A stretch of 62,924 nt of DNA, filler included, from Hausera hauseri (GCA_046269625.1; 11 parts of 11 records of this genome joined end to end with filler, not necessarily neighbours in it); one strand, 5' to 3'; counted from the whole stretch's first letter, positions 16,356 through 59,185 are shown. Notes: generated by a model from the sequence alone, not told the origin. Numbers and translations are program-made.

Positions 16356-16455
16356 NNNNNNNNNNNNNNNNNNNNNNNNNNNNNNNNNNNNNNNNNNNNN
16401 NNNNNNNNNNNNNNNNNNNNNNNNNNNNNNNNNNNNNNNNNNNNNNNNNNNNNNN

Positions 16456-34546: not shown

Positions 34547-34609
34547 CCACTAGGGGGCGCTAGAGGTTCCTTGCTTTTGTTCTGATGAACATGGTGTAAA
34601 ACCGGAAGT
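34547..34609 (+). promoter_or_regulatory. CTCF-like motif (CCACTAGGGGGCGC) and ETS motif (ACCGGAAGT)
   Basis: Consensus matches in an otherwise AT-rich contig; no functional evidence. Confidence 0.35.
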
Positions 34610-35879: not shown

Positions 35880-36680
35880 TAAGTACTAAATCTTTGCATA
35901 ACTGAAGCCAGACTAATCATCAGTATACTGAAATCATGCTATTTTGGAACAGCTAACTTTGTACTAAATACTTTTAATTTGTAATTAAATTGTAGAAAAT
36001 CACAATTTTATATGCATTAGGTGTTCTATTATGTGCTAAAGTGGAACAACTTTAACTATACTTTGTACGTTTTATGCGGTGTTGTGTGTACTAATAAACA
36101 TTTTACTTTATGCTACTTTGTAGCATTGAGTAAAGATCATTTATTTCACACTAAGGTACTGCAAACCTATTATGCTACCAGTATACTGAAAGCTGAAATC
36201 AATAAACTGATTAATAGCCCCTTATTTAATTCAGCATTTAGTATACTGGTAGCCAAATACTTTTGGAGTACATTAGTGTGAACTAAAACATATAATGTTT
36301 AAAGTAACAGAGTATAAATTTTAAGTAGCTAAAAATAGTACTTACTAATTATATTAAACCAAAAGCATACTAAAAATATGATAATAGTATATCAAAAGTA
36401 TAGTTATGAATTTGAGAGGCATTAAAAAACAAATTAAATTCAATTATTTTACAAAAGTATTGCATTTCATTTTTACAAAGCATGCTTTTAAAACAAAGTG
36501 TGTTTGAAGTTGTTCCACTTTAGCATGTAAAGGTACACTTCATACAAAATAATGATTTTGTACAATTTATTTAAACTAAAATAGTTGTTCCAAAATAGTA
36601 TTCTTCAAGTATATTGATGATTAGTGTGGCTTCAAATATGCTGAAGTATACTAAGATTTAGTATACTTAGTCATTTTTTT
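35880..36680. mobile_element. Foldback/MITE-like element with long imperfect inverted arms
   Basis: TGAAGCCAGACTAATCATCAGTATAC (~35903) pairs with GTATATTGATGATTAGTGTGGCTTCA (~36609); CTAAAGTGGAACAACTT (~36036) pairs with AAGTTGTTCCACTTTAG (~36507). Confidence 0.6.
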
Positions 36681-37494
36681 ACATACAAAATTAGAAGCTA
36701 ATGATGGAATTGGGGAAAAACAAATCAAGTGGAAGGTTCTTTTGTACGTATGCAAATTATTACATTTAACTACATTAAATTTTATATATAGCCAATATGA
36801 GCAAAATTGTTATGATTTAAGAATTGTACCCTAAAGAAATAAAAAACGTGCTTCCTTCAAAGGAATATTTTTTTTTATAATTGAATTTTGTTTCAATTAA
36901 GGTGTTGTAATTGGTGGTGAGCAGCTTTAGTTATACAGTTGATTAATTTCTACACTTACTCTGAGGGTTGACTGGAACCATAGGTTTAAATCATTTTACA
37001 ATTAGTTTTACCAGCTTGCATCTTGCCGAAGTTCTTGCTTAGCAACTGCATATTTCACTTACCATATCTACTAAATACTTATCAGGTAAAATCATTATAG
37101 ATATCTATAGCACAAAAATAAAACAATGTTTTAGTAAAAAAATTATTTATCAGAATAAATAAAACAGACAGGAAACAGAGAATGATACCTCGGCTGTCTA
37201 ATCAACAATTATTTATATAATATAAAAAGATGAAGAAATGGAGTAGACACCGTCAGGACACGAGGATGAAGAGGATCACTGGGAGCTGGAAAATTGGTCT
37301 CTCCTGCTGAGATTTCTGCATTAAACCATGAAAAATGGAAAATAAAAATAGATCACTCTCTAAAATCGTAGAACTTTAAGATAAAAAATTTTATGTTCTG
37401 GCAATTGCAGTTTTTTACCACATGCCTATAAAATATATGTATCTCACTTTCAGTTCCCACAAACAAATAATAAGCAATGGGAAAACACAGAGGG

Positions 37495-38062
37495 GAAATC
37501 CCACTGTAGCCACTCGGTCAAGTTAGCGTAGGTTAGCTTAGCATCGGACTTCTAGCTCTGCTGCCTCAAACTCCAGATCGTATTTCAAAGTAGGCTCAGT
37601 CATGTAGAACTTACTGGTCAGAAAAAATGTTGAGGTCTTCTTCCTTGCTCAAAACATCTTGATTATTTCTGTGACAAACATTGAAATGGTAAATTTCTGT
37701 CCTTGTTTTACCACTGCTGGTGCCGCAGAGCACTGTGGGATATATTGTAGGCCATGTGTTTTGAAACTACATTACCCATAATTCCTTCAACTTTCATTCC
37801 ATATATTCAGACATTCATTCAATATATTCTGAGTTCATTCAAAATAATCAGACTTTCAATCCATATATTCTGAGTTCATTCAATATATTCAAACTTTCAA
37901 TCCATATATTCTGAGTTCATTCAAAATAATCAGACTTTCAATCCATATATTCTGAGTTCATTCAATATATTCAAACTTTCAATCCATATATTCTGAGTTC
38001 ATTCAAAATAATCAGACTTTCAATCCATATATTCTGAGTTCATTCAATATATTCAAACTTTC
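37495..38062 (-). repeat. Inverted second copy of the c7 repeat arm with 21/42-bp tandem array
   Basis: Reverse complement of the 33179-33590 motifs; tandem ACTTTCAATCCATATATTCTGAGTTCATTC units at 37790-38062. Confidence 0.85.
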
Positions 38063-38243
38063 NNNNNNNNNNNNNNNNNNNNNNNNNNNNNNNNNNNNNN
38101 NNNNNNTTAATTAATTAANNNNNNNNNNNNNNNNNNNNNNNNNNNNNNNNNNNNNNNNNNNNTGCTGGTTACTCCAGCACTTGTACTGCTGATTTTTGTT
38201 GTGATATTAGATTTTTGAGATTTAGATTTTTGGGGTTTAAATT

Positions 38244-40790
38244 TTATTGGCATAGGATTAATTTTCTGAAAGTTTTTTTGAGAATTTTATTTGTCACAAT
38301 TAGAATTTGAATTTTATAATTTATTAACTTTAGTATTTTTGTAAGGTGGAACCTTACAATGTGTATGGTGTTACAAGATACTTTATATCCTTGTTTATAA
38401 AGATCTTCATTCCAGATGGGGTCTGAGATGCCTTCTATTTTCAAAATTTCGTTTGGCTCTTCATTATCGCTATCTGATAATCCACTCAAAATAAATAATG
38501 AGAATATCCATAGTAGTATTGAAGTCCATGATGGGCTAGGGTGTTGAGAAGTAGTCTCGGCTGCCTCAGCTGTGAATAGAAAACATATTCCCAGAAGGAG
38601 TAACGTACCAAAAGAAAATGTGGAATAGCCTTTTATTCCCGAGGATTTCCGTTTTTTATCTTTTTCCTGCAGGTCATGAATATGCATTGCTCTTGTCTCG
38701 TTCGCAATTTCGTCCAAATATTTGATACTGTTTCCTGCAAATTGTAGTTGGTCAATCTTCAACCATTGTTCCCGTGGGAGGTTACTGTCTAGAGGTTGAC
38801 CCATTCTTCTATTCCAAGCTCGTTTTACTTCTTCCACTCCGTTGATAAGTTCTGTTCCCCCTATATTTAGATTACGATGTTTATAGATTTTCGATGTTCG
38901 ACTAGCGGCCACATAGTCATGGTGTTGAGATTTCCCTGGACAAACTAAATCAGGGATTGTATAATATACTTCTTCACAACTTATCTTGATTAGAAGTTTA
39001 TCTAATGAAGTTAGCGTATTGAAGTCCAATTTTAAGTCTTCACATATTATTTTTATTATAGGTCTATATTGTTCGTCTGTTATTCCGCACTTCTCGTGGT
39101 ATTTACTAAGAAAATCTCTTAGCTGCACTACACTATTTATGGGTCCTTTGACTAATTGTTGGGCATGGTTAATACGTTCCGAGGTGGCTAATAAGAAATT
39201 CTCCAATCGATGTCGATTTTCAGCTTCTCTGGTTAAAGGAAGTGGTGGCAGATTTTTTCCTTCTCGTTGGGGCAGTTCTGCATAATTCGGCTCGATTGGT
39301 TTGACTTATTTATGTCGTACCTGCTCGGTAAAATCTATTCTTGTTGACCTGTTTTTATTACTTATTGGTAACTCCTTGCTTTCTTCCGGCTGATATTTTT
39401 TAATTTCCTCCCTTAGGAGTTTAATATTCTCTTCTGCTTCTTCGAACTTCTTGCTTATAACTGTGTAGCTTGTCGGTGTTTGAAACTCACTTGTAGCTTG
39501 CATTCTCATTAAGTCGGGATAAATAAAGGTTGTTGACATAGGTCTTAATAAATCTTGTAAAGAATTTCGTGGTGGTTTTTGTGGAATACTTGCCATACTA
39601 GATACCAAAATAGTATCCATATTGGTTATTGAGGGTAAGGGCACTTGCCTTCTTACATAGTCATTCGAAAAGAAATTGTCTGCTTCCTCATCGTAACCTG
39701 CCATACGGCTAGGAAACATATAATACACGGATATCAACAACAGTACGACTGTGCTATTCCAAGTGTTGGTCGTAGAAGTTGTTTCAGTTTATTGGGCGTC
39801 CGCGCATCCAAATATTATGAGTAACATTAAGGTTATCAAGGTTATGGTAGATAACCTGAAAGGATTTCCGAAAATTGTTGAAGGGGTATTAGTTGAAAGC
39901 ATTTCCATTATTCGTGTTTGTGTTATTTTTCGGGTTAGTGTAGATTCTGTATTGTGTTCGATTGATCGCTTTAACGTAATATAATTTAATGAAGGTGTCA
40001 AAGTCTCTTCTCCTGGCGCGAACCACCACTGATCATTAGCCTGAGGTTTTGCGTCTTGATAACCCTCGCAGTTGAATGCAATTGATCTTCCAATAACTTT
40101 GAGTTCTGCTCCTGTCAGTTTGTATAGTACATCTAAACCAATAATAAGATCAGAATACGATTCTTGTGGGTTGGCGTAACAAGTAACGTCGATATATCCT
40201 ATTGTTAAATCTAATTTTCCACACGCTTCAGGTATATAATGAGTAATCCTTCTATGCAGTCGTAAATTTATACAAGTCAACGCAGTAGTGATGTCAAGTT
40301 CCGCATTAACGTACTTACCGTATACTTTGACTAATATTGGTATCAATAAGGGATAATCGTTCTAACTCTGACGATAATGCATATTATATAATAATTCTAA
40401 CCCTTTCATTTCGTCTCCCAACTCGTTTACGCTTTTTTGATATTTCTCCAAATCCTTCGTCTTTTCTAGCGAATTCGTAGCTACATCTATTACTATATCC
40501 TAATCTATTAGCGTATCTCTACCTATGATACAAGGGATTGTGGCATTTTCTAGTATATGATACAAGATCCTCTATCGTTTATTTTTTAATTTGGTTAAGG
40601 CTGTAACCAAGCCTAATGATTTTAACTGATTTACATTTATTAGTTTGTGGTTGATTTCACTGCTTTCAGTCAATTTCAGTTTTAAAATTTTTATTGTGTT
40701 CTTACTTAAATAGTATTTTGCTGCTCCTGTGTCTACTATTGCTTATATTTTGACTTTATTTATAGTTACAGTTGTGGTTACTGTGTTGTC
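38244..40790 (-). pseudogene. In-frame extension after integrase: two additional aspartic-protease-like domains plus repeated signal/TM segments
   Basis: KI*AIVDTGAAK...PCIIGRDTL; VKVYGKYVNAELDITT...DLIIGLDVL; hydrophobic ITLITLMLLIIFGCADA and FGTLLLLGICFLFTAEA. All pieces share the integrase frame. Confidence 0.75.
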
Positions 40791-43700
40791 TGATCCATCC
40801 TCTATAAATGCTATTGTCGTATCTTTATCTTCCAACTGCATTCTACTCCTTAATGGGTATCTGCAGGGTGGTGCTTGTTCTAATTTGCATTCCTTAGCTA
40901 CCGGTTTACATCGTTGCACCCTCATCCAAGAGGTTTTATTAGGGTTGGACAAATTCTGTAGTTCTACACTTGATTCACTTATTTGTAGTATCTTATACGG
41001 TCCTTTATACGACAATTTTAGTTTCAGGCTTTCGCCTGGCTTACAGGTCTCATCTAGTATGTTGATTAAATCTCCAATTCGATATACATGAGGTTTTGCT
41101 TTCTTATCATACTGATCCTTGTAATTTTCTTGATGATATTTAATTTTCAATCCGGCTCTAATCCATGCTTTTTGTATTCTTTCTTGTAGAATTGCTGCAT
41201 AATCAGGCTCTTCCATCAATTGTGATTGTGGTGGTCTATATTCCAAGTCAATTGGCACAATATCTCTTCTACAATATAGTAAAAAGAATGGTGATTCTCC
41301 GGTTGTCGTGTGGGGACTTTGTCGGTAGGCATATACACACGGTTTTATATATAAATCCCAATCAGCTTGATGATTATATGCGTAACTAGATATCATGATC
41401 GAAAATTGTTTACTAAAGGCTTCTACTACACCATTGGCTTGAGGATGATAAGGTGAGATAAAATTGTGATTGACTCCTAGTATCGCTAACACCTTTTCCA
41501 TAAGTTTGCTGCAAAAGTTACTTCCTCTATCAGATATCATTGTCATTGGTACTCCATATTCAAATATTACGTCATCCACGAATCTTCTGGCCATGACATC
41601 TGTGGTTCGGTTTATCATTGGCATCGCTATTGGAAATTTTGAGTGGTAATCTATTGCCGTAAGTACGCATGTGTCTCCTCTATCAGTGGTGGGTAGTGGT
41701 CCCACTACGTCAACGCCTATACAAACAAATGGTGATGCTAAAACTGGTACCGGTTTTAATAGTGTTTTTCTCGCTTGAAAATTTCCTCTTTTTTTGAACA
41801 AATTTGGCAATTTGTACACCAATCTTTCACATCATCTGCTATCTTCGGCCAGCAATATTTCTGCTTGAGTCTGCCTAATGTAGCTTTATAACCCCGATGT
41901 CCACCGAGTTGTCCGTCATGGTAGTGTAGTAAAAGTTTTTCGCGCATGTGTTTTGGTACAATCATGAGTAGATCTTCACTCTCCTGATATTGGATATTTC
42001 CCCTATCCATTTTATATTTATTTTTGCTCCGTTCTTTGTTTAGATTATTACGAATTTTTCGAATTTCTTCATCCTTTGCTTGTTCTTTAGCTATAGTTTC
42101 GTTTGTAATCGGTATGGATAAGAATATATGCATCTCTTCGTTGACTTCTGCATTGTCTACTTCATCTATCATGGTCTGAATTAAGTCGATCATTTTGTAA
42201 TACTCGTATAAGATATCCTCTACTAACGGATCCTTGTAGTCACTATTTTTCACTTCGTTGATTATCGTTATTCAATGTTTGAATAATCATATTTATTAGT
42301 TGATCGGTATCCTTTGTACGTTTCTTTCTTGTTGCTTTGGGTATACTTGGATGAACTTTCTGCGAATAGTATTCCTTTAGGTCCTGCATTATCGGAATTA
42401 GAGTTGATGTGCTCGTTATAGTCTTCATCGATATCACTTTCCTGAAGTCTTGATAGAAAGTCTGCATTAGCATTTGCTTTTCTTTGTTGGCATTTTATTG
42501 AAATTTCCAAATCTTGAATTTCTTCAGCCCATTTCATTAATTTTCGGCTATTATTCCGCTGTTTCATTAACCATTGTAACGGTTTCCGATCAGTGTATAG
42601 AATTATTTCTCGACCGGTTATATAGTATCTAAAATATCGCAAAGCATATACTATCGCGTAACATTCTCGCTCGATTGTTGACCATCTACGTTGTGTTTCA
42701 CTTAATGTTTTACTGAGACATGCTATTATTCCTTCGCGTGGTTTGTCAGGAACAGATTGTCCTAAGACTGCTCCTATAGCGTAACCGCTAGCGTGGGTCA
42801 TTTTTATGTATGGATATTTGGGATCGGGAAATTGTAATATTGAAAGTGAAGTAAGGATTTGTTATAAAACTTTGAATGCTCTCTGATGTGTTTCTTCCCA
42901 ATTCCATGTTGTTCCTTTTTTGATTAGCTCTACTAATGGTTTAACTATATTTGCAAAATTATACACAAACTTTCTATAGTAATTTGCCATTCCTAACAAT
43001 CTTCACAATTTTTTAGGCCATTTGGGCGGTTTTAATTTCTTGAATTTTTCTACATTTCTAGGATCGGGTTGAATTCCTTTACTTGACACTATGTATCCAA
43101 GAAAGGTGACGGTGTTCTTAGCAAATTCGCATCTTTTCAACTTAATTTTCAAATGAGCTTGCTTCAGCCTGTCAAATACTTGAGAAATGTCTTTTAAATG
43201 TTGTTCGAAGTTTTCCGAAAATATTATTACGTCATCTATATACACCATACAACACGTTAGTCCTTGTAATACAAAATTCACATACCTTTGAAATGTAGCA
43301 GGTCCTCCTGTCAAACCAAAATGCATAACATTAAATTCCCATAATCCAGTTCCAGTAGAAAAGGCTGTTTTTGGTTTATCTTCTTCGGCTACTTCCAATT
43401 ACCAAAATCCACATTGTAAATCTAGGGTGGTGAATAGTGCGGCATTTCTTAGAGCTGTAAGCATCTCATCTGTCTTTGGTAATGGATAATTATCCTTCTT
43501 TGTGACATTATTTACGTCTCTAAAATCTACGCAGAATCGTTTTGCTCCATTTTTCTTCTGCACTAATACTACTGGAGATGTCCATTGTGAGAAGCTCGAT
43601 CTGATAATACCGTGTTCCACCATTTGTGCTATTTGTTTATCGCATTCTTCTTTCTTGACCTCAGCCATTCTATACGGATTTTGTTTCATAGGATAGGTGT

Positions 43701-44283
43701 TATCTGTGATTATATCATGTTGAATGACGTTAGTTCTACCAATGTCATTATGGTTTATGGCTATAATATCTCAATATTTGTGAAATAACTGCAGTAATTT
43801 TTTAAATTGATAAGGGGTTAAATCGCCGTCTTTAAATTTAATATTTTCATCTTCTACTAAAAACGTTGTTGCGCATACGTTAACTGGTTGTAACTGTCCT
43901 AAGTTGAGGTTTTGCCGTAATTTGATTGCCCTTTTATTGATACTTTCTATTAGCAGTTCTAAACATTGTACTCCTTTTGGTACAAATAAGGCATATTGTA
44001 GAATTTTGTATTTTTCATTGTTATATAAGTTCGGTTCAAACATACAAGGTTGCTTGTGGTATTGCGATGGTATTGTTAGCATTACTACTACCTGCTGTTG
44101 TGGTCTGATAATAACGTCATGAGTCAAAGTCATGTTGATATCCTCAGTTGGCAAGTTAGTCATCGTGTATTTAAGGGTTTTGGTTGAAAGGTCCATTGAG
44201 AGTCCTGAAATTTGAGATAATACATCCATTCCTATTACTAAGGGTACTGGCAATATTTTGTCGTCCACCACAAACAGTGTGAT
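40743..44283 (-). pseudogene. pol: Gypsy Pol (PR C-terminal half - RT - RNase H - integrase) with stops and frameshifts
   Basis: ORF pieces 44307-43771, 43689-43399, 43398-43003, 42801-42268, 42253-41756, 41822-40743. Confidence 0.93.
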
Positions 44284-44630
44284 GGTAGTAGAGGGATGTG
44301 AGCGCATGGCGCCAACCCCCCCAGTATTGAAAACCAGTATTCAATAATTAATGTTTTTATATGGGAAAATTTTGGAAATCAATATTTTATATGGTATCGA
44401 TTGCCGCAGTCGGGGTTTCACTATTTCCATCCCCTCCATAAAAATGAATATTTTATATGGGAAAATTTGGAGCAGTCGTGGTTTCACTCTTCCCACCCCA
44501 AAAAATCAATTGGCGCAGTCGGGGTTTCACTATTCCAACCCCCAAAAAATCATTTTCCGCAGTCGGGGTTTCACTATTCTAACCTCCAATTTGTTTAAGT
44601 TTTGCAAAGTTGTTATTTGTGTCACTTATG
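44284..44630 (+). repeat. Repeat terminus (same family as 26130-26466) truncating the Gypsy protease
   Basis: GGTAGTAGAGGG start; four CAGTCG(G/T)GGTTTCACT subrepeats at ~44407, 44473, 44516 and 44560. Confidence 0.7.
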
Positions 44631-44996
44631 NNNNNNNNNNNNNNNNNNNNNNNNNNNNNNNNNNNNNNNNNNNNTTAATTAATTAANNNNNNNNNNNNNN
44701 NNNNNNNNNNNNNNNNNNNNNNNNNNNNNNAGGGATTTTGAAACATTTTCAAATGTCAAATAAATTGTAATGTTAAATTAATCGAAATACTTATTGTCTG
44801 ACCTTTACTCTAATTAGATTAAACAAAATACCCAAGGTCAAAATCCAACATTTTTGTCCATAAATGATAATCCATGAAGGTTATTACGCCCATGACAAAA
44901 AGCCAAACCCATAAAAGACAAAGACAAAGGTATATATATTTCTAAAAGGAAGGTATTATTGCTACATCAGACGCAAGCCATATCATTGCATCACAG

Positions 44997-45911
44997 TCAG
45001 GAACTCACACAGCCACTATCATAAGAAAGAGGAGTCACCAAATCCACAATCTCATTGTATTTATCTGAGAACAACGACTCAATTTCCTGATCGAAATTGT
45101 CAACACCTTTCTTCAACACTTCCTTGCATCGAATATGCAAGTCTGATGTTCGATCGACTGAAGAATTGTTTCTTTGCATCATCATCTGTCTATGTCCGTG
45201 GGACGAAGTCCCATTGAGTATGGCATCGATTTCTGACGTCGACAAACTCAATATATCCGCTGCTTTGTGACGAGCAAATTCGTATCCCTTGGGAACATCC
45301 GAATTACTGTTACTATTGTCTAGTTTTGTAGACATCTTTACAAGACCCTGACTGATTTCTATAAGTCGGCGAATTTCTCGTACTTTGTCCGTCAACAATC
45401 TGGCGATCGTGACGATGAGTGCATCGTACCTATTGCACTTTGTCTTCAATTTCTGGACTTGCTGTACAGCCTTGTCCATGGCCGTTGAACTTTTCGATAC
45501 GATCGTTGCCACACGGCACTCATTTTCCTGATCTACCTTACCCAGCTGCATCTCCAACAACTGTTTTGCATGTTTTGTGTCCGCTAATTTCTTTTCCACC
45601 AAATCAATTCGAGACAAATAATTCGTGCAGTCAATCTCAAATCGTTTTCGTTCATCGAGAATTACGTTTAACCGAATTTGTAAAGAATCAGTTTGTGTTT
45701 TTAATCGATAGTTCAGATCTTCGAGATCTTTTATTCGACGATCTTTTAAATCCGAGCATGTCTTATCCCTCTCCTTCAAACCATCCAAATAAGCCAGTTT
45801 ACTACGCAGATCCTCGATAATTTTCTTCTTACAACTAATTTCCCGGTCCAATTTGGACACTTCATCACGCATTTGGACCACTTCCACATCCCTCTGCGAT
45901 TGTTCCTTCAT
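44997..45911 (-). pseudogene. CNTLN: Centlein C-terminal part (retrocopy segment)
   Basis: KTQTDSLQIRLNVILDERKRFE and ARHKAADILSLSTSEIDAIL resemble the centlein C-terminal motifs as I recall them (SIDSLKQRLNVAVKEKSQYE; AASILNISRSDLEEIL). Intronless. Confidence 0.7.
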
Positions 45912-45949
45912 TTAAATTCATACAAAATCACAGCGCTCTCTTTTCATTT

Positions 45950-48079
45950 CTACTTCTTGTGTCGACGACCAGCACAATATTCTTTGTGAATTTGTAGATC
46001 GGATTTTTGAGAATATTGCCGGCCACAAGTCTCACAAACACAAGGTTTACTGGAATTCGTATTCTTCACTGGAGATGTTGACCATTGAATAATGGATGTT
46101 TTAGTATTTTCTCTGCTATGATCTCTCGACGGAACTCTAGGTCGAGCAGACCCTTTTCTATTACCAGAATTAAGCCGTGATGAAATGACTGATGGAGGTC
46201 GAGTGATATCCATATTTGGGAGTTTGAACGAATCGTTCGTCTTTGATTCATGGTGAATGGCATGCTCAGTACCAGATTCCGATTTGGTTTTGCTGACTTT
46301 CCTTTCCAATAACTTTTGAAGGGCATTTTCCAGATCTTGATTTTGTTGCGATAATAATTGTATTCGTGATGCATTGGCTTTTATTTGGTTATGGATATCA
46401 TCTTCAATATTTCCGGTATCGATCTTTTCCAAAGGACCATTAAGGTCTGGATAATGTACCAAAAGACTTTTATCATTTTCTATCTCCATCATTTGTGATT
46501 TCATATCGGGAATTTGCTTTTCAAACTCATCAATTTTCTGAGAATATTCATTTTTTGACTCGGTGAGCATCTTAATCAATGATTCTTGATCGGATAGTTT
46601 CAACATGAGTGACTCAGCACTGATCTTCATCGACGTAACACAGGCTAAAGAATCTCTCAATTCCTCTTGTAAATTATCAACTTGTTCCTCCAGTTTTTGC
46701 TTTTGATCCGTTAGGTTTTGCAGTCGTTTCAACAATTTATCTTCCTTATCTCGATAAACCTGCTCGGAATCCTTTAATGTTTCTGATACGGCTTTTTCAG
46801 ATTTTATAGATGATTTCAAATCATTTATCTCATTTTTGTATTTGATTAAATTTTCTTTTAATAAACACAGAGATATCAGAGGATCGTTTGAATTACTGTC
46901 AATACTGAATATACCCTTTTTGATGTCTTCCAACTGATCAAGAAATTGCTGCTTGCTTGAAATTTGACCAGTCAGATTAGTTATTTCTTTTTGTAGCAAT
47001 TCATGCTTTTCGTTAAATTGCAAGGTCATTGAATTGATTTCAACTTTTGTATCCTGAAGCTGACTTTTATAAGTATTTATTTGCTGCAACAAATCGAGTT
47101 TTTCCTTGTTTAATTTGTCTAATTCAGCAGCAAAAGAGTCCTTTTGCTTCTCGGAAGCCCGTTTTAATTCTTCCGTCATTTTACGATTCGCAGCTAATTC
47201 TATATTCGTAGCTGCTTCTTTTTCTTTCAAAGTTTTAAAAATCTTACAAATTTTTTCAAAGTCCTTGTAAAATGCACTTTTGATCTGCAGAAGGATTTTA
47301 TCACTCATCCAATCAATACTGACTATTTCTTGTTGGACCTTTTTTAATGCTGAACTCTCCGATTCTTCTTGAAGAAAACGCATCAAAATAGAACTTGATT
47401 CATTCAAGCATGACTGAGAAATATGACAAGATTCACAGGGTTTAAATGCTGTATCCAATGTCTGACAGGATTTACATCCAAAATCTTTCGATATCGTACC
47501 CACGACAGATTTCCGGCTTTGAATTTTCGCCTTTGTTTCGCTCTCCAATTCTTCCAGTCAACTCGGTGCTTGATTATAAATTCCATTCTTGCTTGTATCA
47601 TGTATATCATCGGAATTCCTATCCTTAGATTCCCCTTTTGCTCTGATCTCGTTAACGAGATCTTTATTGATTTCCCTCTGATTTGAAATTTCTTTATTTA
47701 GATTTTCCAAAAATATTGACATGTGGCAGAGTTTGTTCCAGTGCTTTTTGGACGTTAATTCTAAACATGGTGAAACGACTTTCGTTCGTTGGCTCTTTTC
47801 ATTTTTAACGCTCGACATCGTTTCCACAGTCAACTTGTCCATATACCCACAGTTCAATTGGAGAAAGAGACAGATCCTATCGATAATTAATTCCAAAAGA
47901 ATAATATGCGATATCTGATTATTCTCCGGATCATCGCCGTCATATTTATATAATTTCAATAATTCATCGATATTTACTTCACATGCTGATTTATCCGGAA
48001 ATTTCCATGAAATACAATTTATTCGGCCAATTTTACCAATGATATCTTTAATTGACGATTGTAAATCACTGACATCGTT
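45950..48079 (-). pseudogene. CCDC157: CCDC157 homolog, intronless, lacking the first ~14 codons, single in-frame TGA at 47558-47560
   Basis: NDVSDLQSSIKDIIGKIGRINCISWKFPDKSACEVNIDELL...SHIILLELIIDR and LLVHYPDL...QIKANASRIQLLSQQN match recalled CCDC157 conserved blocks. C-terminal C2HC/C2H2-like finger. Confidence 0.85.
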
Positions 48080-48963
48080 CGTTGTTGGACAGTTGGTTTT
48101 CTTGGTGGCATTGATCTTGATCTGCGCGTTGATCTGCAGCTGCCTCCACGACGAGATCTACAACTACCACCAATACTAACACAATCCTCCAATTGTTCCA
48201 TATGCACTGCCAATCGATCCATTTTGTATTTCAAATCCTCAATAGGACTCACCACACCATTATCATTGTCATTAATTCCATTATAAAATTTATCCACAGC
48301 TACACTCTCCTCCAATCTCTCACGCAACATTCTAATTGTATCCTGCTGAGTCATCATATGATCATTGGCCTCATCCAACTGTCTCTTCAATTCTTCAACA
48401 CAATCTCCATTCACCATCAAAACTCGCAATTTCTCATCCAATTCCACATTCCTTAACATCAATTCCGATTTGTCTTCTCTCACTGTCGTCAATTGTTTCT
48501 GCAACGACGACACCGTCTCCAACAATTCTGTACGTTCATTCTCGTATGCATCAATAATCCGTCGTTGGTCTTGTTGTTCATCCTTACTCATCGTCGTCAT
48601 CAATTGCACCGTCAATTTTGTCGCCTTATCCGTCACATCTGCACACTGTCTCTCCACCATTTCCATCCTCATCGATAAATCTTCATTGCATTTCCGTAAC
48701 TTTTCACAATCCTCATCGCGCAATAAAACAACTCGATTCAAGTTCCGAATCTCCTCGTTCTTCTTCTCCAATTCTGATAACATTTCGAACAATTTTATTG
48801 CCCAATTCTCCTTCTCCCTCTGAACTATTAATCCCATGGCATTTGTCAAATCTGGTGACGACATTTGCAGACGTTTCCACAACGACCAAACAAAATCCTT
48901 TTCCTCCTTCAATTTTGTTATTTCCTTATTCAATCTATCAATATCCAATTTGTAATCGACCAT
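48080..48963 (-). pseudogene. CNTLN: Centlein N-terminal part (retrocopy segment)
   Basis: EEKDFVWSLWKRLQMSSPDLTNAMGLIVQREKE matches the centlein hallmark KEFVWSLWKRLQ..PDLT.....V.REK. Intronless. Confidence 0.85.
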
Positions 48964-49011
48964 TTACGAAATGTCACACAAAATGTTGTCCAATATTAAT
49001 CAATACGGTAT

Positions 49012-49055
49012 CATGCAATTATAGCAGAAAAATTTGTATAAGACCGTCTAACGGC
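49012..49055 (-). other. Flatworm (planarian-type) spliced-leader exon sequence, 44 nt, fused to centlein 5' UTR
   Basis: GCCGTTAGACGGTCTTATACAAATTTTTCTGCTATAATTGCATG. The first 16 nt match the planarian SL start as I recall it; it ends in ATG and is not followed by a GT donor. Confidence 0.9.
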
Positions 49056-49217
49056 CTCCAGCTATCGGTGAATTATGCTCATTACCNNNNNNNNNNNNNN
49101 NNNNNNNNNNNNNNNNNNNNNNNNNNNNNNTTAATTAATTAANNNNNNNNNNNNNNNNNNNNNNNNNNNNNNNNNNNNNNNNNNNNTTTGATGGTGGAAT
49201 AACCCGATCTGTAGTTG

Positions 49218-50640
49218 TCAGGTTATTCCATCATTAATTCCGTCCTGTGGTACCATCACCATTAGTTCTCTTTCGGGGATTTTATGACGCTTAATACAAC
49301 AGTTTTTGGGAATCAATCGACAAAACGCAATTAAGATTAGGAGAGCGAATATTGACGTTCCAATAACTGTTATTAATAACAACGTTGTCCATTTGGTTAA
49401 ATTTCCTATTTTGACGGTAGCCGTAGTCTCATCATCTATTCTGTCATTAGTTAATGGTTTCGTTATAACAATCTCGTTCAAGATTCATATTGTAAACACT
49501 CTACCTTGTTTGTTTTCTGAACATATTTGTATTATATAATCTGTTCTGGTTTTAACCCAATACATTGAATTCGGTAACTGCCTTTTGGCAGTGTTATTTT
49601 CTTATTATCGTGTAACGTTCGGCAGCTTATTTCTACGTCGTATCTCAGTGTTTCTTCCGCAATGAACGTTATTTCGCGTTGTGTGCCTGATATTTTACAG
49701 GGATTATTTCTGAATCTTTGTGAGATGATTTATTCCTTGGAGTGGTTTTGATGAGTGCAGGAGTAGTAGACTTTATCTTTGTATTCGTTGTCGTATCAAC
49801 TGAATTCAACTTGATTGGATTTTTGAGTCGGTAGCTTCCTAAATAGATACTTGACTGGTTTGGTCTGACTTCATATAAGTCTAACTGAATTCTATATTTT
49901 TATTTTGGCGAAACTTGCAACATTTCTTCTGTTGATCGACATCGATTTTGCAGTACTGCTGGTTGTAAGCTTGTATGTTTTCTTTCAAGAACCGAACTGA
50001 GATTACTTGACCCTTAATTAATTGTCGTTTTGTGTTTATTTGAATACAACTGTCCTTTTGATTTTCTGTTATACTGGCGATATTTTCTTCCAACATTAGT
50101 TTTACTGGGTTGATGGACTGGATCATTTTGTTGGGTTTTATCCAATGATGCTTGTTCCAAGCAGGAATAACTAATTGAAATTTTGGTTTTATTTCGTAGA
50201 TTTTAGATCATTTCGATGAATACAGTCGATAGGTAAGGTTATAAGTATGTCCGAAATCCGTACTGCAACATTGTGTATGCTCTACTGGTCTGAAGTCACT
50301 ATTCCTCGTTTCTTTTGTCATTATATCATCTAGAGCAATTTGAAATCTTCCAAAATCGTGGTGTATTTTCTGTATCGTAAATCCAATGCATGTGGAGTTC
50401 GGCGAATAATATTGAATTGTGACTGATTGTAATGACGTAATATCTTTTTGTCTTTGAATTTCTTCTAATGTTGGTTTCTTTTCTGTTTTATTAACCCCAT
50501 TATTCCGCGTTTCATATACATTTTTTAAGGTAGATTCGTCAATCCACCCTCTAGCTTGTGTTTTTAGAATATAAGATGCGATTAGCGATAATGCTAGAAT
50601 TATCTGAACGTATGATATCGGTCTAGTGATAATTGACGAG
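49218..50640 (-). pseudogene. Post-integrase type-I membrane protein (env-position), decayed
   Basis: Signal-like YVQIILALSLIASYILKTQA, Cys-containing ectodomain, C-terminal TM TLLLITVIGTSIFALLILIAF. Confidence 0.55.
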
Positions 50641-50649
50641 GTCTTGTTT

Positions 50650-53600
50650 TCTCGTGGTCTTAGATTGTAATGTTTGGTTGGCCTTATATCCGTTTTAACT
50701 ACTCTTTGAATCGATACGACTTCTTCTTTACCAATCTTGTTAATATAAACCATAGTTGGTGTTGTATGGACTATTTTGTATGGTCCTCTTCCGGTATGTG
50801 TTAATTTCAAGGATGTACCTTTCTTCGCGACTCAGTAGTGTATATAAACCCAATTTCCCTATTTTAGATCATGAGGTTTAATCTTTTTATTGTATTGGTT
50901 TTTAAATTGTTCCTGGTATTCATGTGATAATGTTTTCGCAACTTCCCAACATTTCTGCAATCTTGTCTGTAAGACTTCCGCAAAGTTTTGTTCTGAATCC
51001 TCGAGGTTCTTTTCATACGGTGTCATACCTAGATCTGTAGGTAAGATTGCCTCTCATCCATACATCATAAAGAACGGTGTAAACCCTGTTGCTGGATGTG
51101 GAGTCGTATTAATCGCGAATTGTGTTCCTTCTAGGAATTCATCCCAATTCTTTTGATCTTTGGTTACTACTGTTGATAGTATCCGAATAACTGTTGCGTT
51201 CATCCGTTCAACCATTCCATTACATTGTGAGTGATATTCAGTAGTAGTTAAGCGTTCAATTTCAAATATTTTGGTAATCTTTTCGAATAATTCACTTGTG
51301 AAGTTCCTTTCTCTATCCGTTAAAATCTGTTCTGGTGGTCCATATCTGCAAATGATTTTTCTTACTACTGCGTCGGCTAAAGTTTCTGCCTTTTGATCTA
51401 ATAGTGCCACTAGTTCTACGAAGTGAGTTAGTCGGTCCACACATGTTAGAATGTATCTGTTGTTTTTGAGCGTTTTAGGTAGAGGTCCTACTATATCCAT
51501 AGACATAGCTTGCATGGGTCTATCTTGTACCTTTATAGGTTTTAATTCTGCTACGTAGCCTTTTGTTTTCTTTTGCTTTGTTGCGCAAACTTTGCATGCT
51601 CCTCCCCAATACTTTACATCAATGTAAATATTTGGCCAGTAGTATTTATTTAATATCCTTTCTAATATCTTCTTCTAAGATATGTGTCCGGCTAGGTATG
51701 AATCGTGTTCAGCCATGAGTACTTCGATACGCAATCCTTTTGGAATAACTATTAGTCTTCTCCCTTTTCGCTCGTAATACAAAATATTGTCTCGATCCGA
51801 TGCATGGTATTTATGTCCATGTTTCTGTAGATGCTTTTTCAGTTGTCGTCCTTTTGGTATTTCGGCGTTTCGTACAAACTCGATAATTTGCTGAATAACC
51901 GTATCTTTAGCTTGCTCAGCTGTAATTCTAATTGTCTTATCCAATATCAGGATTCTTTGTCGTTCAATCAGCTGTTCAAGTTGTGGTCTCTTTAATGTGG
52001 TGATTGCACTCGTTTTTGTTTTTAGTCTCGAGAGTGCGTCGGCGTCGACATGTTTGTTACCAAATTTGTATTGAAATTTAATGTTATATCGCGAAATTTC
52101 ATCAATCTAGCGGTTTAGTCTACATGTTGGGTTATTAGCTCGTCCGTTTAATGTTGTAACTGCTTTGTGATTAGTCACTATGATAATCCTTTGTCCATAG
52201 ATATATACATTAAAGTGTCGTAGTGCTTTCTTAACTGCCAATGTTTCCAATTCGGTAGCCGAATAATTTTTTTCCGCTTTCTTCAATGAACGTCCACCAC
52301 AAGCTATTGGATGTTCTAATTCTTCGTCTTCGCGTTTTTCAGCTAATTCGTATCCAATTCCTTCTTTGCTCGCATCCGTTTTAATGATGAATGGTAGGTT
52401 AAAATCTGGGTATCTTAAAACTGGTTTACTTGTCAAGATTTTCTTCATTTCGTCGAATGCTTTTTGTTCCACTTCTGTCCATGTCCATTTAGTTCCTTTT
52501 TTGAGTAGGCGATATAGTGGTGCATTAATTTTTGAATTATCTGGTACGTAAGTGGAGTAATATCCACATAGGCCTAACCAACGTCTTGACTCTTTTTGAT
52601 TCAGTGGTTCAATACAATCGGATATTTTATTTAGCAGAGATTTGTCAGGTTTTGATCCTCCTTCTCCCACTATGTGTCCAAGGTACGATACGGCGTTCTG
52701 TGCCCATTTACATTTCTTTGGGTTTAACTTCAATCCTGCTTGTTCCAGTCTTATGAGTGTATCTTCAATATCCTTTAAGTGTTCCTCTTCTGTTTTTGAT
52801 GCTATCGTCACGTCGTCTAAGTACGCGAATGCATGATCAAGTCCCATGAGCATCTTATTCATCATTCTAGTACAAATAGCTGGTCCTGTGGTGATGCCAA
52901 AGGTCATAACATTAAATTCGTATACGCCATCATGTGTTTTGAACGCTGCCTTATATCGATCTTTTTCTTCGATTTCTACTTGCCAGTATCCCGATTGTAA
53001 GTCGAGGGTGGTAAACCATCTTGCTCCTGACAGTCTATCTAATGCCTGCTTTATTAATGGTAGTGGAAACGAGTCTTTCATCATCAGCGTATTTAACGCG
53101 CGATAATCTATACAAAACCGATGTTTTGTGGTTCCTTTCTTTTTAACCATCAGTATGGGTGAGTACCATGATCGATAACTTGGTCAAATTATGTCGGCCT
53201 TCAACATCCGCTCTACTTCTTCAGTTATTTCTGGTCCCAATGAGTGGGGAGGCGGATACCATTTGGGCATTTTCTGTTCTTCTAGATCGATTTCGTCATT
53301 TGAGTCAGGTTTCTCCCTCAATGGAATGGTTAATCTTAGAGCCTTTGCTCTACCTATGTCTTCTTTGTTTTGCGCTATTATAGAGCGGAATTTACACAAT
53401 AATTCGTAGAATTTGCAATACGCTTCGGGAGAAAATTGGGTTTCAACATGAGGTGGAAATTCGGCACACTTGTATGGTTTCTCCTCTATTGCCACTGCCG
53501 ATACTCTGCAAGTGTGACCCAAAGTAGTATTAGCGTGCAATCTTACTGGAATCGGTTCACTGTTTACTAATCTGATAGGTATTCGTCCCGTCATTAATCT

Positions 53601-54150
53601 ACATAAAATGTTACTAAACATAAGGTTTGGATCGATATTCTCTTGGGGCTCAAAATATACTGGCAAATCTTCATCTTGTCGAATTTGTGTGAAAATTGTC
53701 ATTTCCGTCCTAGGTGGAATGTCTTCATCTACTGGAACCCATACTTCGCCCGATTTCCTTTTTTTTATTACTTTTGTCCCTTTTATTGGTTTGAGTTCAA
53801 TTAATTTTTTATTGTGCACATCGATTGCCATACTTGGTAGCTGTTTCAATATGTCGCAACCTAGTACTACATCGTCTGTTAACTGGTCCATTATCGCATA
53901 TTCGTGTTGGAGTGCTTGACCCATCATATAAACGGCAGAAGTCCATTTAAATTTCGGCTTCGATACTTGTCCAAATGCTCCTACGCTACCTGGGTCCGAT
54001 GATGCGTGCGGTCATAGCTGGTCTCGCAATGTGGTTGGTATAAATTCATGTTTTATAAATGATTTTTCTGATCCAGTGTCGATTAATGCATACACTTCCC
54101 AATCTTCAATGTGTATTTTAGCAAAGTGTCTCCCTTCTGCTACTGTTCCG
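50650..54150 (-). pseudogene. pol: Gypsy Pol (PR-RT-RNaseH-IN) with in-frame stops
   Basis: All ORF pieces from 54395 to 50208 lie in one frame, separated by stop codons. Confidence 0.93.
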
Positions 54151-54785
54151 TAGCAATTTGACGCTATCTTTGACTGTTTTATAGTAGAGACTCTATGTCC
54201 ATTTATCGTTATTTCTGGCGATGAAATTATATCTTGCCTTAATTGTCTTAATTCTCCACTCGGATATAAATTATTATTCGTCATCTCATTGACTCGACTG
54301 TCAATGAGCGGTTCCTGAGGTAGTAAACACATTTTCGGGTTCTCCCAGATTGTTGATTTCGATTCTATGTGTCGTGGTATCCTTTTTGAGTACAATATTC
54401 CGTGGTCGTTTTAGGTTGGTCCTTGGTTGATAACATTCATTTTCCGTAGTACACCATATTGTTTTGTTTTTTCATAAGGATCTTCGTAATTAATGGGTTT
54501 TTGATAGATTTCGGACCGACATGATACGATTGATTTGCGGTCGCAGTCTTCATATATTGGTGTTGTTGGCGGCATAATGGGCAATGGCGCGTTAATCACT
54601 GAGTACATCTTGTGCATCTTCATTCTGGAACTTACTTCTCCTCCCTTAGGCTCGTCATCATCTGAATCATCCTTTCGTGTTACTGTTGTCTTATTTTTAC
54701 GTCTATACAAAATCGAGTGCCTCCCTCGTCGTTTGCGATTATAGTACCCGACGTGGCGTTCTACGTCATTTTTCCAGCGATTTTC

Positions 54786-56609
54786 TTAGTAAGCCTTAAG
54801 CATCTTTCCAAAGGGTGTGATAATTGCGGTCAAAATTTTGCAAGCGAATCCTGTCAATGTGAATATTTCATATCCTTTTATAATAGCTTGGATCACTGCT
54901 TTAATTAACTGGACTAAGAAGTAGATGGCTAAGAATCCAGATGCGGCTTGTCCGAAAATTAAAAACCTTTCCAAAATCTTATGCAATATCTCTGCAGTTA
55001 CTCTTTGATAGTGATTAGCGCCGAGTAACGACTCCCATTTCGCTTGAAAGCGGGTGTCATCCATGACTATTGACGTGGCCCGATTCAGTTCATAAGTTCG
55101 CTGTCGCGAAAATGCTAAAAATAGCCTAAAAGCTTCTATGTCTTTTGGCCTATAAATTCCTTTGTTAGCTGTATCTTCGAATTTATCTTCCGATGATCCT
55201 TTGATTAGATTTGTCCCCGTTAGTTTACTAGGGGCTGTGGCTGTACCTCCATTTGGTAGACTTATCCAGTCGGTTCCACTGCGTCTAAACATTGGTTCCC
55301 CAATACTTGTCTTGCATTCCTTCAGTATTGTTGGTTCAGTCGAATTTGCCAGTAATACTCTGGTGAGTGGCATCGCTAGCCTTGGCATATTCTCGTAAAT
55401 GACCGGTAATTCTTGCATACATCTCTTTTCCTCTACGTTGGTCGGCACGTTTTTTTCACATTCGTATGTTAATAGGACTTCTCCGGTAACCCGTCCAAAA
55501 ACACCTTCCTTTATTGGCATAATCGGTAATGCCAACTGTGGGTTGGCGTAAATTAAAGCCAGTTTGGTTCTCATGACTTTAGTATTTAATCAGCAGTCAT
55601 ATGTTATCATTTTGTAATATAGTTCCACTATTCCGGTCTGCCCTTTGTAATAGAAATAGTCGCCTCGGTTTTTGAGGTAATCCTCGATCCGCACATCTTG
55701 TGTTTTTAAATCATACGTTTTCATATAGATTTCTGTTTCTGCTACAAAAAGTGCTTAGTAGTTAGTGGCATACATAACTACATCGCAGCGTGATAACATA
55801 TCCTTTCTAATAAATTTTAACCCGTGCACATCTGATATTAATATCGTCGGTGTGGATTGTTCTATTACATCTTCCCTTGATCTGGTATTTCATGCAATTT
55901 GCTCGAATAACGCTTTCCAGTAGTTTCATTAAATTTTTTTTCTGATTTTGATGAAAGTGCAGTCCTTCTTGGATGGTGGATTCCATACGATAACCGAACT
56001 TTGGAACGTTCAAGCACCATCATGAATGTGACATTTCTGATTTTCGGTGAATAGTTTGGTAACGGTATGAAACATCGCTTTTAAGGATCTTAACTCGGTT
56101 TCATAAAAATCTACGACTAGTATTCCTCCTTTTATTCCCTTCCCTGTGTCATATTCTCCTCCGACACAATAACCGGTGTGCATGTTCAATTTTTCCACTG
56201 CCATTTTGTAGGCTCTAATTATTTTTCCTTCTTTGGCTTCCAATTCTATGCCGTCCCAAACCATTTTACCGGTTGAACGGGCTCCTAAGCAATGTTTTCT
56301 GTCCACGTTTATTGGTATCGATGGTGTGGTATGTTTGATTATTGAAGAATGGCCGTGTATATTACCACAATGAAATATGCTGGGGGACCTACGTATCATG
56401 CATTCTGTTGCATACATTGCAATTAACTCACGTTGTTGATATAGTGTATATTTCTTCTCTCTTGTCTGGAGCTTGTGGGGCCTCGCATCCTCATATGTTT
56501 TTAAATCCATCAAGGAATATTTCTGGCCCACCTTAAATTTGTTACAGTAGTATATGGTGACTGCTCCCATTTGCTTCACTAACATTATTATTGTTAGTAA
56601 ATTGATTGA
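54786..56609 (-). pseudogene. Chuvirus-like / herpes gB-type class III fusion glycoprotein
   Basis: Internal signal LLTIIMLVKQMGA; IYYC...YSLMD...LYQ...ECMIRRS.SIFHCGNIHGHSS; LALIYANP...GVFGRVTGEVLLTYEC...CMQELPVIY...AMPLTRVL; KGIY; TM FLIFGQAASGFLAIYFLVQLI. Confidence 0.8.
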
Positions 56610-57317
56610 CTAATTCGATTCATTTCCTTTACTCGAAGAGATGTTTCGTACTATGTCCTCTAAGTTATTGGTTCTTTTCGTATTGTCCACTTTTCTGAAT
56701 AGTTTGGCCCATTTTATTTCTTTAGGTACCCTTCTCGCCGCTTTTCTAGCTAACCCGATTATCTTGTCGAACTCATTTTCTGGGAGAGGATTAGTTTTTA
56801 CGGCTAAATATATCAAAATTTTTCTTAATTCTTCCATCGTATTATCCATCATGATTCTATCAATTACTGTTTCATCAGGAAGAGTACTTTTAGATAATTT
56901 GAATCGCAACGTTTTCATTGTCCCTGCTATATTATATATATTAGTCTTTCTTTTTCGGATAATATGTCACCTTGTAGTGCGGTATAACTAACTATTCTTA
57001 TTAAATATTTCATTAGCTTAACTAATTCTTCATTATCTGAGCTCGGAGTGGGTATTGATAATTGTCTTAGTTTTCTAATCAGATCTGCATTATATTCCAC
57101 TTCTTTTATTTTCCTCGGTCGTCCAACCGGTCGTTTCGGTTTCGTTTGTTGTAAGGTTTCACTTATAGGTACTAAATTTTTATGGTATTGAGGTTTGCCG
57201 TCATTCGTTTTAGGTATTCGAAGTACATTGCGGCGTCTTGAATCACCATAATATTTTTAACGCAATGTTCTGTACGCGCCTTCCTTATGTCTTCGTTTTT
57301 GGTTTGCTCACTAGAAA

Positions 57318-57534
57318 TTATTGCTATTATTCGATTTTCTTCGTGGGGTATGATTCCTACGTCTATTAAGCATTCTAACTCATCTAATATCCTGCCCCTG
57401 AAATACAGTCGGTAATTAACTTCTTCTTTACCATCCCTGTCCATTATTCGTTGTCATATATCCGCAACGGTGGTATAAGTAGTGCATTCAAATTCCTCAT
57501 CATCCATCCAATCGGATGATACTTTCACTTTAAT
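57318..57534 (-). pseudogene. Ubiquitin-like domain within the retroelement polyprotein
   Basis: TVADI*QRIMDRDGKEEVNYRLYFRGRILDELECLIDVGI aligns without gaps to ubiquitin [40 protein letters not shown]. Confidence 0.75.
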
Positions 57535-59071
57535 CCCCACTTCTGGTTTATTTATCAATCGTTTAGCGTATTCTCTTATTAGGAGCTTGGGAACTGCACT
57601 GTATGCGGTGTTTTCACTGGCTAGCTTAGTAAAAGTTGGAATTAATTTCTTTAATTTGTCTTCACTCATGTCTATTTTCAGTACACTGTCCAATTCTTTT
57701 TCTGCTAACGTAGGATCCAGTAACATTTTTACGTCAAATTTCTTTTTCAGGGTATTAATAGGTGACTCATAGATTTGTATAGGAGTTCTTTGACTCTGTT
57801 CGTTTAAACCTGGGCGGTATTTATCCCACTCGGTATAATTATCTGCGTCAGGTAGCTCGTAGTTCATTAATGCCGCGTGTCCTACTTGGACTTGTTTGTG
57901 TAGTTCTTTTATTTGCGGTTACAATATTTTCATTACGGATACTCTAAATCCGTCTCCATTTTCGCAGGCTTGTTGTATCAATGTTATTATTCAGCACATT
58001 TCTTGTGGTTGTATCCAGGCTTTCTCTTAATAGCCGGTTATTTCTGCGATTCTGTCTTTTTACCATCTCTGTACGAATTCCGTTTTGTCGTTCATTTCCG
58101 ATTCCGTAAGGAAATACTTGTTCTTGTCAACTTCTGTTTCTCTCAGTAATTCGTTTAGCTCGCGTTGTCTTTTCTCTGAGCGTAATTGGGTTCCTTTTAC
58201 CAGACGTATTCGATTTGTTAGTCGTTTGGCTACTACTTCGTAAATTTCTGCCATTTCTGTTAATAATAGGATTAATTTGTGCATTTGATTTAATACTTCA
58301 GCATCCGGATCTATTGCATCCATTAGCCTGCCTATGAACTGGGCTTCGTCGGCAGTCAACTGAAGATCCTTCCTAATTTTCGTTAGTTCGGCGTGGCAAT
58401 GTAAGTCGAAGCATGGTGTCCATTCTGCTGGATTCTGTAAGTATTGTAGTGTTTGTACCAGGGCAATCCGGTGATCTTTACATACTTGCAATGTTTCTAT
58501 TTCCTTTGCTGAGATTTTCTTTAATGGTTTCTGCATTAGGTTCTGTATCCCTCCCCTGCGGATGTTGGCTAAACTTTGCTGAAGATTACTTAGTTTGTTT
58601 CTTTTTCTGTAGAACTCCTTTTCTTCTATCATACTATATATCGCTGTTAATGTTGTTTGCTTTTGATCCCTGTTCATAAATTCAAGTTCTCAGAATGATT
58701 CGAATTTAATTCGCAATTTTGCTTCATCTTCCATCGTACCGATATCTAGTAGCATTTCATCCAATTGTTGTTTTATTATAGGCTCAACCACGGCGAATTC
58801 TCTCAGTCTTTCGCTTATTATCCCTGCTATGGAAGGTAACAAGTCTATCCACGTCTTTAGTTNNNNNNNNNNNNNNNNNNNNNNNNNNNNNNNNNNNNNN
58901 NNNNNNTTAATTAATTAANNNNNNNNNNNNNNNNNNNNNNNNNNNNNNNNNNNNNNNNNNNNGTTGTATAGAATGTATAAAATGTTGGTTGGATGTGTGT
59001 GAAAAATAATGATTGAATGATCCCTGGCAGGGTTCGGAAGACTGGGAAAACGGGAATAATTATGGCTGAAA

Positions 59072-59115
59072 GCCGTTAGACGGTCTTTACAAAACTATTG
59101 TTTTATAATTGCATG
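59072..59115 (+). other. Flatworm (planarian-type) spliced-leader exon sequence, 44 nt, fused to PMCA 5' UTR
   Basis: GCCGTTAGACGGTCTTTACAAAACTATTGTTTTATAATTGCATG; shares its first 16 and last 12 nt with the copy at 49055-49012. Confidence 0.9.
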
Positions 59116-59185
59116 AAATCGCATTTTGAATAAACATTTCCATTAGATTTTTCCGAATTGAAAAACTAAAAACAACTAAATCGAA

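Follow-up and report, generated by a model that had tools for sequence, protein, structure and literature searches.

Retroposition mediated by LTR elements is described as yielding internal replacements, multi-gene chimeras and secondary copies, with a median microsimilarity of 6 bp (Tan et al. 2016, PMC5131818), and the capture mechanism proposed in the first-pass annotation, with reverse transcriptase switching between co-packaged RNAs, is already described in other animals (PMC5131818). Retrocopies can also be recognized by a spliced leader (SL), as in the DinoSL-tagged retrocopies of dinoflagellates, for which the type of mediating element is given as unknown (PMC6050394). In parasitic flatworms, 597 loci that bear an SL without being SL genes lie near mobile elements (PMC12582326), and another study reports 32 such loci, of which 11 are merged to genes and 6 to transposons (PMC5832876). 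Caution is needed with SL matches in assemblies of flatworms, since some of them are not SL genes. The SL sequence itself is the target of SLACS/CRE elements. The planarian LIN relatives treated in PMC4640811 target 28S rRNA and tRNA genes. Retrocopies that combine several genes are known, as are retrocopies tagged by an SL. No literature was found on SL-tagged retrocopies in planarian genomes or on a constant flank before them; term searches of PMC11410931 and PMC10899757 returned no description of SL-headed planarian retrocopies or such a flank, and relevant data on SL loci and their flanks may be contained in the supplements of PMC12582326, PMC5832876 and PMC10899757.

This work describes an SL-headed chimera of centlein and CCDC157, most likely a genuine genomic retropseudogene and one of a family of cDNA inserts that begin with an SL. 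It lies in a window of 62,924 nucleotides (the whole stretch of DNA analysed), in which 11 records are strung together by artificial N44-PacI-N44 spacers. The record of the chimera (Table 1) ends 31 nt ahead of the SL and 266 nt past the last stop, and no sequence outside these limits belongs to it. The other records carry a LINE, a BEL/Pao element, two gypsy elements and fragments of protein-primed DNA polymerases, several of them broken by stops. Three scaffold gaps (10, 100 and 257 N) are present and, as the broken transposons and these gaps indicate, the source of the window is a fragmented genomic assembly. No Rfam family matched the window at gathering score. A gypsy element of the window carries a mononegavirus-like fusion glycoprotein upstream of pol, a Burro-type layout, and the same position of the glycoprotein is described for planarian Burro elements (PMC6431247).

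All 16 named matches to the PMCA piece described below at ≥ 66% identity (among 120 listed) are cestodes or trematodes. The window SL has the CGGTCT start region and the ATTGCATG end in common with the SL of Macrostomum (PMC8629364). By these two lines the host is a flatworm. The start of the SL, which is like that of the Schmidtea SL, and the gypsy layout make it probably a triclad.

Contigs of run X1, the only listed run containing window sequence (it has 87% of the words sampled, and its record gives no library type), were aligned to the chimera record at 80% likeness. This gave 122 records, with 8 pieces and 6 loose ends listed (117 and 29 more). X1 may be the source sample of the window. 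Its contigs average 78 nt, which fits a repetitive genome, and the best of them differ from the window at several sites (alleles, copies or another individual). Listed X1 cover is absent over ~46099-46390 (bin 46191-46336, depth 0), a hole that proves nothing. No RNA run with window sequence was listed, which has no bearing on expression. For the centlein comparison, a profile of 1257 positions was built from 27 hand-picked full-length centleins out of ~126 fetched.

Table 1. Features of the two SL-headed copies, in window coordinates
Feature	Position	Strand	Basis or remark
Chimera record, whole contig	44731-49086	features on minus	bounded by artificial N44-PacI-N44 spacers
Upstream flank of chimera, 31 nt, cut by contig end	49056-49086	minus	homology to the PMCA copy's flank
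SL exon variant 1, 44 nt, ends in ATG, no splice donor behind	49012-49055 (49055 to 49012)	minus	alignment to L002 SL RNA gene
5' UTR, 48 nt	48964-49011	minus	sequence
Centlein N piece, 294 codons from ATG 48963	48081-48963	minus	protein homology, profile
Junction 1, centlein to CCDC157, out of frame	48081/48080	minus	CCDC157 homology start, X1 contig end
CCDC157, codon 16 to stop	45950-48080	minus	homology from 48079/48076 to 45974
CCDC157 nonsense codon TGA	47558-47560	minus	translation
Spacer, 38 nt, probably CCDC157 3' UTR	45912-45949	minus	between CCDC157 stop and centlein ATG 45911
Junction 2, CCDC157 to centlein	about 45912	minus	in-frame stop directly before 45911; X1 bridging
Centlein C piece, 304 codons from ATG 45911	44997-45911	minus	tblastn, profile
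Tail, 266 nt, probably centlein 3' UTR, cut by contig end	44731-44996	minus	no poly(A)
Stretch skipped in one X1 contig (deletion variant, CCDC157 joined to centlein C piece)	45650-46698	minus	X1
Upstream flank of PMCA copy, 109 nt; last 80 nt 41% GC	58963-59071	plus	separate contig 58963-62924
SL exon variant 2, no splice donor	59072-59115	plus	SL alignment
Intronless decayed PMCA calcium-pump copy, codons 1 to ~600	59186-60930	plus	colinear with flatworm proteins

The anatomy proposed by the first-pass annotation is borne out almost throughout. On the minus strand, 31 nt of non-SL sequence precede a 44-nt SL, which is followed by a short UTR (48 nt) and by the N-terminal codons of centlein (294 found, ~295 claimed). 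The abrupt out-of-frame switch into CCDC157, given as ~48080, falls at 48081/48080. CCDC157 is nearly full-length and carries one nonsense codon as claimed; position 48079 aligns to residue 16, so that the first 15 codons are gone rather than ~14. Behind its stop (45952-45950) come 38 nt, against ~35 proposed, and then the C-terminal codons of centlein (304, against ~300). The three coding blocks take up 3929 of 4059 nt and the SL, UTR and spacer the other 130 nt, which leaves no room for an intron, as had been noted for these 4 kb.

The centlein N piece is matched by all 26 proteins of the centlein search (22 named centlein) and the C piece by 12 of the 26 (tblastn), with homology extending to residue 1-2 of the C piece; the CCDC157 part is matched by 3 of 3 proteins (2 named CCDC157-like). 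Against the profile, the N piece covers positions 16-232 and the C piece positions 968-1247 of 1257 (E 8.5e-32). Towards its end, the N piece carries an RSRSMPP motif similar to motifs that four homologues have around residues 410-460, and the conserved centlein block that follows this motif has no match in the chimera. The middle of centlein is replaced, not interrupted, and roughly 500 profile positions are gone. GC3 is 0.44 in both centlein pieces and 0.33 in CCDC157. The best centlein relatives are ~25-35% identical over long stretches, and no parental gene was found among the fetched proteins. Read from the first ATG, the chimera yields 314 residues before a stop, the frame of the N piece continuing 20 codons into CCDC157 sequence up to the stop at 48021-48019. 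The chimera is not an in-frame fusion and, from its reading frame, could encode only a 314-residue truncated centlein; a working fusion gene is unlikely, and the locus is almost certainly non-functional. Two other arrangements were considered. An in-frame, ATG-to-ATG rejoining of the centlein halves was dropped on account of the X1 contig end at junction 1 and the absent middle block, and for a short native centlein no parallel was found, as among the fetched relatives of ≥ 400 aa none below 870 aa matches both pieces; a shortened planarian gene may still exist.

An exact gapped SL-pattern scan of metagenome contigs returned a single locus, L002, which is a true SL RNA gene. Its exon is followed by a GT donor, an Sm-like site and three hairpins (fold z -4.0; 0 of 200 shuffles as good). 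Its first 17 and last 9 nt are identical to those of the chimera SL exon and, as an SL RNA gene has the same exon ends, the latter is not a chance match. The single locus with the pattern in viral contigs (L001) was rejected as a chance match within a phage tail gene. GT donor, Sm-like site and hairpins are missing after both SL exons of the window, and the predicted folds of these exons and their flanks are not more stable than those of shuffled sequence (z -0.7 to -0.9). With a profile built from the three SL exons, exactly 2 significant copies are detected across the window. In both, the SL exon runs straight onto mRNA sequence without a donor, as in SL-tagged retrocopies, and the X1 contigs part ways behind 49012/49011, i.e. 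3' of the SL exon.

The second SL copy heads, after a UTR of 70 nt, a PMCA copy that is free of introns like the chimera, being colinear over ~600 codons. It is damaged by frameshifts near 59878 and 60797 and a stop at 60175-60177, and its 3' half is absent. With two frameshifts and a stop, it cannot be an mRNA, and SL-headed processed copies thus exist in the genome. Its SL variant is also a loose end in 5 X1 contigs among those listed. The stretch after it was taken by eye for a decayed LINE; this was dropped, since it gave no Pfam match and no significant match to the LINE proteins of the window. An E-value Rfam scan of 58963-59300 gave 4 matches, all below cut-off. This second retrocopy and the flank that it shares with the chimera, which are the strongest clues, had been missed in the first-pass annotation. 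From the upstream flank, the disablements and the decayed transposon contigs with scaffold gaps, we infer that the SL copies lie in genomic DNA.

Spanning reads had been proposed as a check on the two junctions, and contigs of X1 extend over both, though to different lengths. One contig (45864-46098) bridges the junction at ~45912 with 0 differences. Another (47567-48110, 544 nt) runs 30 letters past the junction at 48080, the bridging rule being 31 letters. If the word size is 31, a de Bruijn contig ends at a branch with a 30-letter overlap, so that this overrun places junction 1 at 48081/48080, which fits the protein homology. The junction-crossing paths have depths of 10 and 3.9. Contig depth over the three pieces, 5' to 3', is ~34, 10 and 4.6, and ~5000 on the SL, values that are not copy numbers. 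A 5'-biased RNA source would give a similar fall in depth.

X1 also contains variants of the chimera. One contig (depth 3.8, short side 30 letters, 80% likeness) joins 46699 to 45649, with a 7-nt microhomology given the X1 letter at 46698, and this joint is not bounded by GT-AG. Another listed contig has a sense codon at the TGA site (47560-47558). Both variants suggest that more than one copy or allele is present. X1 further holds CCDC157-like and centlein-like pieces that have diverged by ~18-22% in the visible stretches and carry indels. In two of them, CpG transitions make up 7 of the 17 private substitutions (CpG at 12 of 87 sites; p 0.005), an excess as in decaying genomic copies. As for the signs of secondary copies in X1 (variant joint, sense codon, depth steps), alleles or parents could explain part of them.

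Directly before the first SL base, the two copies share related sequence. The 31-nt flank of the chimera aligns, anchored, to 59027-59071, with 105 of 20000 shuffles scoring as high in a test picked after viewing the alignment. At 49077, a loose end in X1, 5 listed contigs that fit the chimera up to there continue otherwise, and the consensus of their continuation is 26/29 identical to the flank of the PMCA copy, which ties the two flanks together. The flank pattern has 0 matches in viral contigs and one across the window, the PMCA flank itself, and the flank matches none of the retroelements in the window. Shared flank and second SL copy hint at a recurring route of mRNA capture into the genome. 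The flank is the new part of the finding, and it may point to capture driven by SL homology.

Whatever the origin of the chimera, the flank could be the upstream DNA of the SL RNA genes of this species, or a common target repeat, to which SL-headed cDNAs were joined through the 44 nt of SL homology. This is a tentative reading with the odds against it. It would account for a flank that abuts the first SL base in both copies and diverges about as the two SL variants do, SL genes are tandemly arrayed in a related organism (L002, in a 2.68-kb unit with U4 and U5), and SL-targeting non-LTR elements exist in nematodes (PMC4640811). On the other hand, the upstream 80 nt of the L002 SL, U4 and U5 genes have 20-21% GC against 41% for the flank, and the flank has no profile match to the upstream DNA of the L002 gene, which belongs to another species. 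Neither cargo has an SL intron or Sm site after it, and ten other X1 contigs (among those listed) carry mixed sequence right before the SL (agreement 0.5).

Our preferred reading, to which we assign a probability of roughly 0.55, is that the chimera is a dead chimeric processed pseudogene in a family of SL-headed inserts behind a common upstream sequence, and that a retroelement-borne SL-centlein cDNA later caught CCDC157 by a double template switch. An SL-centlein mRNA would first have been copied into cDNA as far as its cap and linked to the flank, most simply as the cargo of a non-autonomous retroelement. During a later round, the enzyme would have jumped from the RNA that carries centlein to a co-packaged CCDC157 mRNA, close to the 3' end of the latter. 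After copying nearly all of this mRNA, it would have switched back to centlein at a position further 5', so that ~500 profile positions were replaced. Later copies or alleles may then have gained the nonsense codon and the microhomology-bounded deletion. Such a double switch would require one passenger mRNA only.

The first-pass annotation had read the locus as a DNA copy of mature mRNAs in which two template switches of reverse transcriptase replaced the middle of centlein, the pattern expected from RNAs co-packaged in LTR-retroelement particles. The copy and the replacement stand, whereas the two switches are the likeliest origin and the particle route is a conjecture. The contig, which reaches 31 nt upstream of the SL and 266 nt beyond the stop, shows no LTR, primer-binding site, polypurine tract, poly(A) or target duplication; apart from chance-like pairs, a search for repeats turned up neither terminal repeats nor duplications. 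Partial mRNAs of two parents with internal sequence replaced are seen as in LTR-mediated retrocopies. Since neither flanking LTR sequence nor the parental genes were found, the locus is likened to such a retrocopy and not classed as one, and the LTR-specific version of the double switch is plausible at somewhat less than even odds. The 5'-truncation bias of L1-type copies was not found: both SL copies, which were selected through their SL, are 5'-complete, and the PMCA copy lacks its 3' half.

The cargo might also be exchangeable. A retroelement family may carry an SL exon behind its leader, the SL serving as a universal 44-nt landing pad: reverse transcriptase would copy any trans-spliced mRNA to the cap and return through SL homology, so that cargo (centlein/CCDC157, PMCA) is swapped behind a constant flank. 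We regard this as unlikely; if true, SL trans-splicing would itself make gene capture more frequent and might supply the Burro elements, which are rich in host domains.

A patchwork made at the DNA level, in which an SL-centlein retrocopy came first and a CCDC157 cDNA or retrocopy was then inserted at a break or recombined in, with the middle of centlein deleted, is likewise improbable. The diverged pieces in X1 mean that older copies were available, the variant joint shows that microhomology deletions do happen in this sequence, and CCDC157 is truncated 5' and ends near its own 3' end like an L1-type copy. Against this stand the absence of poly(A) and of any duplication beyond a possible 3 nt at the CCDC157 ends, together with the same orientation and near-complete coding span of the insert, which are easier to obtain from RNA templates.

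No switch between two RNA templates would be required if CCDC157 were nested in, or operonic with, centlein and an aberrantly spliced read-through RNA had been retroposed as one. All exons for ~500 profile positions would have to be skipped, however, and a cryptic donor would be needed 38 nt into the CCDC157 3' UTR; with the variant joint also lacking GT-AG bounds, we consider this origin very doubtful. An assembly misjoin or cDNA-library chimera is the least probable of all, for although the records come from a broken-up assembly, X1 and the window may derive from one sample, the best X1 contigs depart from the window at several positions and depth drops towards the 3' piece, a second contig set (Logan's) has the same junction-crossing paths and the decayed PMCA copy with its related flank cannot stem from an mRNA.

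The SL is a built-in tag of retroposition. As in dinoflagellates, the rates, ages and junctions of retroposition would become countable without recourse to lost introns in a planarian-type genome with many SL-headed inserts. Should the flank turn out to be the leader of an element or an SL-gene locus, the agent of retroposition, left open in the review PMC6050394, would be identified, and a concrete route would be given for the capture of host genes in the giant gypsy elements of planarians.

Each of the described systems shares part of this pattern. Insertion of an NeSL non-LTR retrotransposon (PMC4640811) would likewise place foreign sequence right after an SL exon whose upstream flank is constant; in contrast to NeSL, the window copies have no element ORF and no SL intron downstream, and their cargo consists of host genes only. 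The SL loci of parasitic flatworms likewise have an SL exon without SL-RNA features and are attributed to retroposition (PMC12582326, PMC5832876). These loci were filtered out and are mostly partial leaders on transposons, whereas a host-gene chimera or a shared flank does not feature in the analyses described there. In the DinoSL-tagged retrocopies of dinoflagellates (PMC6050394), a post-transcriptionally added SL in DNA marks the retrocopy, as it does here; an animal host, a chimera of two genes and a common upstream flank set the present case apart. With the LTR-mediated retrocopies (PMC5131818), such as CG4799_CG11924_r, the mouse four-gene retrocopy and maize Bs1, the chimera shares the fusion of intronless partial mRNAs of two genes and internal sequence that is replaced instead of interrupted; secondary copies, of which X1 gives signs, may be a further parallel. 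It differs from them in having no visible flanking LTR element, in an A-B-A order that returns to the first gene, and in a 5' junction at an intact SL, behind a flank common to different cargo genes.

Directly 3' of the SL (spliced leader), the centlein/CCDC157/centlein chimera and the second SL-headed retrocopy, that of PMCA, share seven of 10 nt (49002-49011 (-) and 59116-59125 (+), respectively) despite their different cargo genes, a likeness that reflects either chance or a common short extension. On the 5' side, 10 contigs of X1, a sequencing run that may derive from the source sample, diverge from the window at position 49055 and carry differing sequence immediately before the SL; their consensus, of low agreement, includes a T run as well as a hairpin of the UUCG type. 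A true SL RNA gene is present in L002, a metagenome contig from another species, in one 2.68-kb tandem unit together with U4 and U5 snRNA genes, and no SL family in Rfam covers this SL RNA gene.

The broken zinc-finger gene, which we take to be ZC3H10-like, is possibly another processed copy; no SL was found upstream of it. The long frame behind the PMCA copy gave no match in a Pfam search.

Features of the window and of the SL RNA locus L002
Feature	Position	Strand	Remarks
Gypsy element	49187-58862	-	interrupted by many stops
Second gypsy element, decayed	38163-44630	-	integrase present
BEL/Pao element	12321-17640	-	pol frame open over 1337 codons
LINE	3709-6861	+	two overlapping frames encode endonuclease, RT and an RNase H-like end
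Polinton-like fragments, decayed protein-primed DNA polymerase B	6962-12220; 17741-22349		matches marginal or below cut-off
Three-CCCH zinc-finger gene	28700-29840	+	broken across frames
Stop-free frame, 544 codons	61291-62922	+	behind PMCA copy; continues past window end
L002: SL RNA, U4, U5 genes	1434-1540, 2115-2257, 2422-2543

CpG observed/expected is 0.28 in one record of the window (33179-38062), and changes in the diverged X1 copies (pieces over 47127-47177 and 48719-48754) are biased to CpG. Together, these sequence signals may point to DNA methylation in the organism.

Among the transposable elements, the gag of the BEL/Pao element bears CCCH zinc fingers, and the decayed gypsy element has hydrophobic segments within long frames downstream of its integrase. 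In the other gypsy element, protease-RT-integrase is preceded by a fusion glycoprotein of Monjiviricetes type (54786-56609), and one more membrane-protein-like piece follows the integrase. This layout, including the fusion glycoprotein upstream of pol, is the same as that published for the planarian Burro elements (PMC6431247).
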